NCBI GenBank assembly: GCA_040387635.1
Contig: JAZKDJ010000001.1
Location: forward strand, 1-49,850
From: Patescibacteria group bacterium
GTDB lineage: Bacteria; Patescibacteriota; Minisyncoccia; Phycocordibacterales; PALSA-1337
Direction of reading: 5' to 3'
DNA length: 49,850 bases
The position numbers and the translations under genes were made by a program. The notes beneath the pieces are model-generated. The model worked only from the letters and a program-made list of their open reading frames with translations, was not told the DNA's origin and did not search any database. This document shows positions 42,160-45,275 of this stretch, one piece after another (the stretch's first letter is position 1; each line of letters starts with the position of its first letter).

Positions 42160-43488
42160 ATGGAACGAACATACATCAAAGACATCAAGGACAAGGTGGG
42201 GCAGGAGGTGCTTATCAAGGGATACGTGGATATTCGACGAGACCACGGCAAGCTTATTTTCATGGACCTTCGGGACATGACGGGCAAGGTACAAATGGTT
42301 GTACTTCCAAACCACGCAGAAGCGAAAGCAGCTGCTCAGGAAGTTCGAGCTGAATGGACTATTGCAGTGAAGGGTAAGGTAAACGCTCGACCAGAGAAGA
42401 TGGTCAACAAAGACGAAGCTCTCGGAATGGTTGAGATTGAGGTTCTCGAAGTAACAGCTCTCGGTAAAGCAAAAGAGCTTCCGTTCGACCTCAACTCAGA
42501 CATCAATGTCGACACATACCTCGATAACATGCCTCTCACACTTCGATCTCCAAAGCGACGAGCTGTGTTCAAGGTACAGGCTCACATTGCAAAAGCATTT
42601 CGAGATTACTACACAAGCGAGAATTTCACTGAGATCCAGGCGCCAAAGCTCATTGGTGATGACGCCGAAGGAGGAGCGAACTCATTTGATGTTACGTACT
42701 TCAAGCACACAGCGCATCTTGCACAGAGCCCTCAGCTCTACAAGCAGATCATGGTAGGTGTTCTTGAGAGAGTGTTTGCTATAGGAAACGTTTACCGAGC
42801 AGAGAAGCACAGCACGACACGACACCTCAACGAGTATACAAGCATGGACATTGAGATGGGATTCATCAATGATCACTATGACATCATGAATGCCGAGAAT
42901 GGTTTCCTAGTACATCTCGAGAAAGAACTACGAGCTCACTGTGCAGAAGAATTCAAGCTTCTTGGAGCTGAGATTCCAACAGTTCCTCAAGAAATTCCAA
43001 AGATGACCCTCAGAGAAGCACAGGATCTCATCACAAAAGAAACAGGCAACGATTGTACGAAGGAGCCTGATCTCGAACCTGAGCATGAGCGATGGCTATG
43101 TACGTATGCAAAAGAGAAGCTCAACTCTGACTTTATTTTCATTACGAATTTCCCAACAGCAAAGCGACCATTCTATACCTATCGAGACGAGCAGGATCCT
43201 ACCTACACAAAGGGCTTCGACCTTTTGTTCCGAGGTGTTGAGATTACAACAGGTGCACAGCGAATTCACGACTACGACGCTCTCGTAGCTTCAATGCTTG
43301 AGAAAAAGCTTGATCCTGAGAAGTTCAGCTACTACCTCCAGGCCTTCAAATATGGAATGCCTCCACACGGTGGATTCGGACTTGGGCTTGAGAGAATCAC
43401 AGCGAAGCTCCTAGGAATCGACAACGTGAAGGAAGCGACTCTTTTCCCAAGAGACCTGAACCGAATTGACGTTCTGCTATCAAAATAG
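42160..43488 (+). CDS. aspS: Aspartate--tRNA ligase, short archaeal-type, probably non-discriminating (Asp/Asn)
   Basis: OB fold with RDHG; LAQSPQLYKQ, YRAEKHST.RHLNEY, PPHGGFGLGLER; no GAD insertion. Confidence 0.9.
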   Translation: MERTYIKDIKDKVGQEVLIKGYVDIRRDHGKLIFMDLRDMTGKVQMVVLPNHAEAKAAAQEVRAEWTIAVKGKVNARPEKMVNKDEALGMVEIEVLEVTALGKAKELPFDLNSDINVDTYLDNMPLTLRSPKRRAVFKVQAHIAKAFRDYYTSENFTEIQAPKLIGDDAEGGANSFDVTYFKHTAHLAQSPQLYKQIMVGVLERVFAIGNVYRAEKHSTTRHLNEYTSMDIEMGFINDHYDIMNAENGFLVHLEKELRAHCAEEFKLLGAEIPTVPQEIPKMTLREAQDLITKETGNDCTKEPDLEPEHERWLCTYAKEKLNSDFIFITNFPTAKRPFYTYRDEQDPTYTKGFDLLFRGVEITTGAQRIHDYDALVASMLEKKLDPEKFSYYLQAFKYGMPPHGGFGLGLERITAKLLGIDNVKEATLFPRDLNRIDVLLSK

Positions 43489-43514
43489 CAGCATCCGGAT
43501 AACCCTCTTGCCAC

Positions 43515-43558
43515 AAAAATCAGGTCATGCCACTATAGCGACAGACCTGATTTTTTGT
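43515..43558. terminator. Bidirectional hairpin after aspS
   Basis: AAAAATCAGGTC-N17-GACCTGATTTTT-TG. Confidence 0.75.
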
Positions 43559-43563
43559 TTTTC

Positions 43564-43927
43564 AATGCGTTGTCCTGCATGGAATGTTGGCCTTGTCGAT
43601 GCCTGGCCACTACGTCCGCCGCACTATGGGCACTGGACAATGCGTTCCTGGTGAGCAAGATCACAAGTCTTGCTGCCATGTCTGTGTGAGACCGCTAGAC
43701 TCACACATGAGATCCGAAAAAAGCCTTGAAGGGGGCCTTTCCTCGGATGTAACTAATAAGGACTTTCTTGTTAGTTACAAAACCTGAGTTGCGTTCAAAG
43801 CTGAACAGATAAGAAACGTTGCGACAAAACGTTGTGACCTACAACCGCAATTCAGAATAGCAAAACGTGCAAAAAGTCTGCACTTGAGGAACCGCTGAGT
43901 GCAATGCAAAGCGGTTCCTTTTACTTT
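43564..43927 (+). ncRNA. Candidate ~360-nt multi-hairpin structured RNA
   Basis: Eight stems tiled almost without gaps, ending in a terminator with a U-tract; G-U pairs mostly favour the + strand. Confidence 0.45.
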
Positions 43928-43962
43928 TTGGGGTATAATATCCTTATATATCCAGGCTAACT

Positions 43963-44706
43963 ATGTTCCACAGCGCTAAACTGAATTTCAACGTCAAAAC
44001 TACCACCTTCGAGGGACCTCTCGAGATTCTTCTTGGTCTCATAGAGAAAAGGAAGCTCATGATCAATGAGATTTCTCTCGCTCAAGTGGCTGATGATTTC
44101 GTTACATACATCAAGCAATTCGGCGCACTTCCAATAGGCGAGTCAGCGCATTTCATCCTTATTGCGTCAACGCTTCTCCTCATCAAATCAAAGTCGCTTC
44201 TGCCAGTACTGAACCTTACCGAAGATGAACAGCATGATATTGCAGATCTCGAACGAAGACTTAAGATTGCTCAAAAAATAAAAGAGGGAAGCGAGCATGT
44301 TAAAAACCTTTATGGCAAGCAGATTATGTTCGCTCAGCAAAAGGGAAGAACTATTGAGCCTACATTCGTGCCGCACGAGACTATGAATACCAAGAACGCT
44401 TATGAATCCATGTTGCGCATCATCATGACGCTCCCAAAGCCCGAGAAGATCGCCACATCAACTATCAAAAAGGTAATCAGCCTCGAGGAAGCCATCAGTA
44501 ACCTCGCAGACAGAGTAAGCAGGAATCTTAGAATCAGCTTTAGAGAGTTTACAGGTCAGGGTACTAAAGAGAAAGTGAATGTGATTGTTAGTTTTCTTGC
44601 CATGCTCGAACTAGTAAAACAAGGCGCACTCCAAGTCAGCCAGGAGGGTGCGTTCGACGATATTCACATCGAAACGAGCCAAATTAAAGTTCCAAGGTAT
44701 AATTAA
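43963..44706 (+). CDS. scpA: Segregation/condensation protein A
   Basis: FEGPLEILL.LI, ISLAQVADDF, IASTLLLIKS..LL, IVSFLAMLELVK. Confidence 0.93.
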   Translation: MFHSAKLNFNVKTTTFEGPLEILLGLIEKRKLMINEISLAQVADDFVTYIKQFGALPIGESAHFILIASTLLLIKSKSLLPVLNLTEDEQHDIADLERRLKIAQKIKEGSEHVKNLYGKQIMFAQQKGRTIEPTFVPHETMNTKNAYESMLRIIMTLPKPEKIATSTIKKVISLEEAISNLADRVSRNLRISFREFTGQGTKEKVNVIVSFLAMLELVKQGALQVSQEGAFDDIHIETSQIKVPRYN

Positions 44707-44711
44707 CCATC

Positions 44712-45275
44712 ATGACACTCGAAGCACAGCTCGAAGCAATTCTATTTTGGTATGCCGAACCGGTAGCAATCAAAGACCTTGTAAAATCTTTGGAGAAAAC
44801 CGAAGAGGAAATCACTGCCGCTCTAGCTGCGCTTGAATCGCAGCTTTCAGAACGAGGAATCAGCCTTCTCCAGCACGGAGGGGAAGTTAGCTTACGCACA
44901 AGCCCAAAGGCAAGCTCTCTTATCGAGAAACTCACGAAGGAAGAGCTCTCAAAAGATCTCGGCAAAGCTGGACTCGAAACTCTCTCGGTCATCCTATATC
45001 AGGGTCCAATATCACGCTCTGAAATCGATTACATTCGCGGTACCAACTCACAGTACATTATCCGCAACCTCCTTATTCGTGGCCTTATCAAGAAAACTGA
45101 AGATCCTAAGGACGAGAGGCGAATGCTCTATGAGCCAACGCTTGATCTCTTGTCGCATTTAGGAATCTCATCTATCAAGGATCTTCCTGAGAGGGAGCGA
45201 ATACAGAAGGAGATAGAAGGATACAAGCAGGCCGCTAATACAGAACCTACAACCAATGGCAACCAAGCTGCATAG
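44712..45275 (+). CDS. scpB: SMC-Scp complex subunit ScpB
   Basis: LEAILF, LGKAGLETLS.I.Y.GPI.R.EID.IRG, Y.PT..LL..LGI. Confidence 0.95.
   Translation: MTLEAQLEAILFWYAEPVAIKDLVKSLEKTEEEITAALAALESQLSERGISLLQHGGEVSLRTSPKASSLIEKLTKEELSKDLGKAGLETLSVILYQGPISRSEIDYIRGTNSQYIIRNLLIRGLIKKTEDPKDERRMLYEPTLDLLSHLGISSIKDLPERERIQKEIEGYKQAANTEPTTNGNQAA

Follow-up and report, generated by a model that had tools for sequence, protein, structure and literature searches.

The window analyzed here, a stretch of 49,850 nucleotides, covers the initial 49.85 kb of a Patescibacteria genome (Paceibacteria-type) that consists of one 566-kb contig and is the sole genome of its genus. An ORF-free gap of 474 nt (43489-43962) separates aspS from scpA. 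These two genes and scpB, which follows scpA, all lie on the + strand. The homologues of aspS carry PF01336 and PF00152 and are annotated as aspartate--tRNA(Asn) ligase, and its product is probably a non-discriminating AspRS. The gap upstream of aspS is just 50 nt and contains no T-box leader. T-box leader matches of 35-49 bits, below the gathering score, are found at three loci of family relatives (L016:1708-1843, L006:2414-2546 and L007:573-705), in front of another gene of the AspRS/AsnRS type, ~33% identical. The aspS-scpA region is sequentially composed of the following features, compared where indicated with L032, a 2.3-kb ENA contig from a relative.

42160..43488, + strand: aspS, upstream neighbour, encoding a 442-aa archaeal-type AspRS (from the ORF list and homologues)
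43508..43536, + strand: putative RNA promoter, TTGCCA-17 nt-TGc-CACTAT, of the extended -10 type (from sequence reading)
43515..43561, + strand: aspS terminator, a perfect 12-bp hairpin (AAAAATCAGGTC/GACCTGATTTTT) and a T-tract (from an inverted-repeat search)
43562..43857, + strand: hairpin body, lineage-specific, folding with a z score of -8.2
43858..43929, + strand: conserved 3' module, the sole part that can be aligned with L032
43933..43942, + strand: scpA -10 box, GTATAATATC, directly 3' of the terminator T-tract and identical in L032
43963..44706, + strand: scpA, downstream neighbour, encoding the 247-aa kleisin of SMC-ScpAB (PF02616 in homologues)
44712-45275, + strand: scpB, 3' of scpA (PF04079 ScpB in related loci)

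Two signals predicted from sequence bound the structured region, a plausible promoter on one side and a strong intrinsic terminator on the other. The putative promoter is built from TTGCCA at 43508-13 and TGc-CACTAT at 43528-36, with a predicted start near 43543. It matches the consensus at 7 of 12 positions in addition to the TG, and lies below detection in a scan with the E. coli consensus. Promoters of this extended -10 kind (TGn plus NANNNT) are found in front of many of the genome's tRNA genes. The putative -10 box is contained in the 17-nt loop of the aspS terminator hairpin. A first-pass annotation, made from the letters of the window alone, had pointed out this promoter and a minus-strand TGC-TATTCT near 43855; both are present in the sequence. 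On the 3' side, the -10 box of scpA immediately follows the terminator. The RNase P RNA gene of this genome is arranged in the same way, with TGTATAAT immediately 3' of the T-tract of an upstream terminator. The layout shared by the two genes runs from a terminator T-tract directly into (TG)TATAAT, with no recognisable -35 box. In the simplest reading, the locus consists of three units: aspS, ending at ~43560, an RNA of ~43543-43927, and scpAB with its own promoter.

The same annotation had described the gap as a series of hairpins. All eight of its stems are recovered where it had placed them, both by sequence reading and in the minimum free energy (MFE) fold.

43564-75/43635-46, + strand: stem 1, 12 bp with 2 G-U, closing a three-way domain (43564-43646)
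43654-61/43667-74, + strand: stem 2, 8 bp, in the hairpin region 43649-78
43683-90/43700-07, + strand: stem 3, 8 bp, in the hairpin 43681-710
43712-17/43743-48, + strand: stem 4, 6 bp plus inner stems
43749-61/43766-78, + strand: stem 5, 13 bp with 2 G-U
43784-92/43847-55, + strand: stem 6, 9 bp, closing a multibranch (43784-43855) with two inner hairpins
43867-71/43879-83, + strand: stem 7, 5 bp
43886-96/43910-20, + strand: stem 8, the 11-bp terminator stem, followed by UUUUACUUUUU

The + strand of 43556-43930 folds with an MFE of -140.2 kcal/mol, compared with a mean of -100.9 +/- 4.8 for dinucleotide shuffles (z -8.23). None of 100 shuffles reaches the native energy, and a shuffle-like energy, which the first-pass annotation had named as a sign against its proposal, is clearly not what is found. 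The centroid and MFE structures are nearly identical, indicating that the fold ensemble is well defined. The minus strand of the same interval reaches a z score of -4.13. The helices of the + strand contain 15 G-U pairs, which turn into A-C on the minus strand, and five long helices are consequently lost or shortened there. The 12-bp, 8-bp and 9-bp helices and the AACGUUGCGAC hairpin are gone, and the 13-bp helix is split. Two short helices are longer by a pair or two on the minus strand. This strand-wise comparison agrees with the initial impression that three stems have G-U pairs on the + strand only and that one stem favours the minus strand.

The structure was placed in its genomic setting by marking all ORFs of at least 100 aa and folding both strands of every gap of 250-700 nt, 65 gaps in all, for comparison with shuffles. 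The + strand of the aspS-scpA gap ranks fourth among the 130 gap-strands with a z score of -8.0 (minus strand, -4.7). The gap that holds the RNase P RNA gene ranks first, with z scores of -12.5 on the true strand and -5.6 on the opposite one. Since a comparable difference between strands marks this known RNA gene, the strand bias at aspS-scpA counts in favour of an RNA gene. The structure is real, non-random and strand-biased, much like a known RNA gene. Its long, near-perfect helices with plain loops resemble recently formed hairpins more than they do an ancient RNA with tertiary structure. Two other gaps of the genome, G000:C1:338168-338536 (z -8.8 and -7.1 on the two strands) and G000:C1:60046-60457 (z -7.0 and -6.5), contain very long perfect hairpins and give no Rfam match at E<=0.01.

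The element does not belong to a known RNA family. No Rfam 15 model matches the gap region at gathering thresholds, and a cmscan of 43400-44050 at E<=10 returns two chance-level matches only, CRISPR-DR64 (16.8 bits) and snoZ242 (10.7 bits). The corresponding gap of L032 gives no Rfam match at either the gathering threshold or E<=10. A hit to a known family would have removed the novelty of the element, and none was obtained. RNase P RNA (RF00010/RF00011) is excluded by the lack of a match in the region at E<=10, and that of the genome is found at C1:152168-152559 on the minus strand with 116.9 bits. ARAGORN detects no tmRNA (RF00023) in the window and places the tmRNA of the genome at C1:311228-311632. 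This tmRNA encodes an unusually long tag of 28 residues, ANTVVSKAKSIVSPFFGASDFSFAYARA. The SRP RNA models (RF00169 and RF01854) have no match in the region. These searches agree with the first-pass annotation, which had seen no RNase P, tmRNA or SRP signatures.

SRP RNA is conserved wherever Ffh is present and is marked by helix 8 with its GNAR tetraloop and by conserved symmetric and asymmetric loops. The element is missing from relatives that need an SRP RNA, which rules it out as this RNA. RF00169 and RF01854 find nothing in the whole genome or in 20-30 relatives, with positive controls detected. These models may simply fail in this order, whose SRP RNA would be divergent. 6S RNA is a rod of ~180-200 nt with a closing stem and a large central bubble. 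Its model (RF00013) has no match in the region or elsewhere in the genome, and the fold consists of independent hairpins, not a rod. Since the model misses divergent 6S RNAs, the exclusion of 6S RNA rests mainly on shape. OLE, ROOL, GOLLD, raiA, the HEARO/IscB omega RNA, riboswitches and the T-box are likewise rejected, with no covariance-model match at E<=10.

Other kinds of element were also considered. A MITE or REP-like repeat is rejected, as the element is single-copy and has no terminal inverted repeats; neither a genome-wide blastn with the gap as query (word size 7) nor an all-against-all comparison of gaps reveals a paralogue. Tandem guide arrays (CRISPR, TIGR) are rejected as well, the sole repeat being one 13-nt unit in 1.9 copies. 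A mobile element is rejected, as the genome holds neither repeats of the gap nor a TnpB-type gene, and no similar sequence was found in phage and plasmid collections. A small protein gene or type I toxin mRNA is rejected by a tblastx comparison of the window gap with the L032 gap, which yields nothing below E 1. The gap ORFs have no Pfam match and are not conserved in L032, in keeping with the earlier judgement that no ORF is convincing. A pseudogene is rejected since tblastn with the proteins encoded between aspS and scpA in relatives leaves no trace in the gap.

The closest ScpA in a collection of 5.8 billion proteins is ~73-75% identical and is encoded on L032. This contig carries the 3' end of aspS, a 630-nt gap and scpA. 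The gap is composed of a 125-nt long hairpin, a strong promoter and ~430 nt of hairpins. The long hairpin (L032:686-810; AAGCATGCACACACGCATGTCT ... ATATGCGTGTGTGCATGCTT) is near-perfect and lies directly 3' of aspS, and its 3' arm adjoins the -35 box of the RNA promoter. The promoter, TTGATA-17-TGtGATAAT, matches the consensus at 10 of 12 positions, has the TG extension and occupies a position equivalent to that of the window promoter. The ~430-nt hairpin region folds with z scores of -4.9 on the + strand and -4.1 on the minus strand.

Only the last ~85-110 nt of the two gaps can be aligned, at ~70-76% identity (blastn E 2e-6). The aligned part contains a single-stranded linker, UAGCAAAAC in the window and UAGCGAAAU in L032, with the consensus UAGCRAAAY. 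The linker is followed by the hairpin of 43867-83, GUGCA-AAAAGUC-UGCAC in the window and GUGCC-AAAGUC-GGCAC in L032. One A-U pair of this 5-bp hairpin is replaced by C-G, a compensatory change seen between two sequences only. The spacing of the palindrome changes from 7 to 6 nt with the pairing kept. The terminator stem is retained with a different sequence, and the T-tract and GTATAATATC are also shared. Third codon positions of aspS, scpA and scpB are only 45-53% identical between the window and L032, and the higher identity of the 3' module points to constraint on it. Position and 3' module are conserved between the two lineages. The body, by the same comparison, would be either unconstrained in sequence or replaced between lineages.

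Covariance model R1 was built from the 3' module, and single-sequence models R2 and R3 from the two halves of the body. Among 34 scpA loci and 121 family genomes, R1 matches only the window and L032, plus one ordinary terminator. R2 and R3 find nothing in L032. The ~300-nt body has no detectable homology between the two lineages, and its fold consequently receives no covariation support. The 3' module, by contrast with the body, has homology in one relative over ~85-110 nt. An outcome without homologues or covariation, which the first-pass annotation had named as evidence against its proposal, nearly describes the body.

The carriers of the module are two, the window lineage and L032. A DNA search of 60 relatives gives no true homologue; its sole match is a chance 41-nt stretch inside a large coding ORF. 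ScpA is found in 58 of 61 related genomes at <=58% identity. Synteny was checked in 20 scpA-upstream regions of family and order genomes and in eight metagenome loci. The upstream neighbours of scpA vary, and scpA mostly lies close behind another gene, at 14-160 nt. Among these regions, only that of genome G005 keeps the order aspS, gap, scpA. Its 355-nt gap contains an unrelated, weakly structured segment of ~190 nt (z about -3). At ~2200-2210 of the oriented coordinates of this locus (L021), a perfect DnaA box, TGTGGATAA, lies beside a promoter-like TTGACT...TATACA. Neither the contigs of the next-nearest ScpA proteins nor N-terminal fragments at contig ends add a carrier. A pattern of the conserved hairpin gives four matches in 400 genomes of the order, against three for a reversed-pattern control; three of the four are in coding sequence and the fourth is in L037 (G114:C33). 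A longer hairpin pattern has 0 matches in all GTDB representatives, and a 14-base pattern is too short to be informative in viral contigs.

The proposal of an unannotated structured RNA is partly borne out. The element is non-coding, structured, biased to the + strand, present in a single copy and absent from Rfam; for covariation across a ~360-nt RNA, the one relative offers homology over the last ~85-110 nt only. In our preferred reading, to which we give about an even chance, the element encodes a structured ncRNA that has its own transcription, is restricted to its lineage and combines a conserved 3' handle with a body that evolves fast. The element would be a self-contained + strand transcription unit inside the aspS-scpA gap. 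Transcription would start near 43543, at the extended -10 promoter nested in the hairpin of the aspS terminator, and the RNA would run through six tightly folded hairpin domains. It would end at ~43927 with the 3' module, a short hairpin and an intrinsic terminator, adjoining the separate scpA promoter. The predicted product is a stable, non-coding and highly structured RNA of ~385 nt, apparently limited to a single Paceibacteria-type lineage from which few genomes have been sampled. The body would change quickly, with any selection acting at most at the level of structure, and the sequence of the 3' handle (~70 nt) would be constrained. Most likely, the RNA would act in trans. The UAGCRAAAY linker together with the 3' hairpin and terminator may serve as a binding or stability module, and the hairpin body as a nuclease-resistant scaffold.

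The independent RNA gene is favoured by L032, which has a strong promoter at the equivalent place and ~430 nt of hairpins behind it. It is weakened by the folding of L032, where the two strands do about equally well, and by the weak promoter of the window and the restriction to two lineages.

The main rival, which we consider rather unlikely, is an operon-boundary spacer. Here only the aspS terminator, the 3' hairpin and terminator, and the scpA promoter would be functional, insulating aspS from scpAB, and the body would be a functionless, fast-evolving by-product, such as an accumulation or the decayed remains of hairpin insertions, or a non-coding cassette gained by horizontal transfer. The 3' module could then be kept merely as an operon-boundary terminator plus scpA promoter. 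In line with this explanation, conservation with L032 is limited to the 3' module and the -10 box, the bodies cannot be aligned and are missed by R2 and R3, and more distant relatives have no such gap, their scpA lying 14-160 nt behind another gene. The stems are also long and near-perfect, with simple loops. However, a z score of -8 and a strand bias in G-U pairs are unexpected for neutral sequence or DNA-level palindromes. The single copy and the lack of terminal inverted repeats do not suit inserted hairpins either. In addition, a streamlined 566-kb genome retains the ~300 nt, and in the sister lineage the body is even longer and has its own strong promoter. An 11-mer, TCA[A/G]AATAGCA, occurs as TCAAAATAGCA over the aspS stop (43480-43490) and as TCAGAATAGCA at the start of the conserved module (43852-43862). 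The repeat is compatible with an insertion between aspS and an ancestral terminator, and could be the target duplication of an old insertion or a product of chance; we estimate that chance alone would give a region this large roughly one repeat of the kind.

A broader form of the RNA gene proposal, which we regard as quite improbable, makes the element one of a set of rapidly evolving, cassette-like structured-RNA genes of ~390 nt in a deep Paceibacteria lineage. A host factor would recognise the 3' handle and leave the body free to diversify. The diversified body could serve as a decoy, a scaffold or an RNA involved in defence, unlike a ribozyme or riboswitch of the classical conserved kind.

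The region could also be a long structured 5' leader of scpAB, in which a leader-binding protein or ligand would set the choice between termination and read-through (attenuation). The element is co-oriented with scpA, 36 nt lie between the end of its terminator and the scpA start, and the conserved part is precisely the terminator and its preceding hairpin. Another structured region of the genome, ~390 nt within 95205-95992, likewise has a terminator at its end, directly in front of a gene. Against a leader, a perfect TATAAT conserved in both lineages separates the terminator from scpA, and the same order of terminator and TATAAT drives the RNase P RNA gene. In L032 (1276-1291) this box is 7 nt from the scpA ATG, compared with 23 nt from the called start in the window. 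The short distance points to an independent promoter of the leaderless type and suggests that the scpA mRNA of L032 is leaderless. Furthermore, no anti-terminator pairing stood out, and no cis-regulatory family of Rfam matches. Predicted pairing with the 5' end of scpA is no better than in shuffles, 25% of which are as good in the window; the same result rejects antisense pairing with scpA. We see a slim chance for the leader.

A function of the minus strand, or of the DNA itself through protein-binding palindromes or hairpins extruded from single-stranded DNA, is highly improbable. The minus strand does fold better than shuffles (z -4.1), and it carries the TGC-TATTCT motif plus a hairpin and a T-run at 43883-43855. 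The 12-bp hairpin of 43515-55 could terminate in both directions, the minus strand of L032 has the lower absolute free energy, and we read GTGCA-N7-TGCAC, ~70 bp upstream of the predicted scpA start, as a possible activator site. Nevertheless, the five major helices need G-U pairs available only on the + strand, which also bears the neighbouring genes, both promoters and both strong terminators. The palindromes all differ in sequence, arguing against a common protein site, and a change of palindrome spacing from 7 to 6 nt with the pairing kept is easier to reconcile with an RNA hairpin than with a site bound by a dimer.

Several known systems resemble the element in part. The raiA motif RNA, OLE, ROOL and GOLLD, which are structured ncRNAs of bacteria encoded by stand-alone genes, are, like the element, several hundred nucleotides long, multi-hairpin and devoid of coding capacity. 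They share with it an own promoter and a Rho-independent terminator (both predicted here) and a fixed place between housekeeping genes. However, conservation of these RNAs extends across many genera and includes their junctions and covarying helices, whereas the element is seen in two lineages, aligns only over its 3' ~85-110 nt and matches none of their Rfam models even at E<=10. The sRNAs CpxQ and SroC of enterobacteria are 3'UTR-derived or terminator-proximal. As in the element, the conservation of such sRNAs lies in a short single-stranded stretch, a hairpin and a terminator, and the upstream part is variable. Unlike the element, which appears to have its own promoter, CpxQ and SroC are Hfq-dependent and processed from mRNAs. 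The interspersed hairpin repeats REP/BIME, ERIC, Correia and RPE are similar in forming strong intergenic stem-loops that start shortly after a stop codon, in turning over fast between lineages and in their possible built-in terminator. The element differs from them in being single-copy and missing from 60 relatives by DNA search. It also has no terminal inverted repeats, is much longer and consists of eight different hairpins.

The ultra-small genomes of Patescibacteria are tightly packed, and a 474-nt gap with folding statistics like those of RNase P RNA is therefore unlikely to be accidental. If transcribed, the element would be an uncatalogued RNA of a group whose non-coding repertoire is almost uncharted. 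If the preferred reading is true, RNA genes may keep a 3' handle during turnover of the body and escape both homology searches and covariation tests. With two carriers and a transcription unit predicted from sequence, the element is a candidate, not a discovery.

A second hairpin-rich stretch of this genome may be compared with the element. It is located in a 788-nt gap (G000:C1:95205-95992) and shows no sequence similarity to the element, and R1 does not match there. Like the element, this candidate has no Rfam match and no relatives. At ~390 nt it is of the same size class, and at its end a strong terminator immediately precedes a small gene of the same orientation, on the minus strand, that we take to be rpmG.
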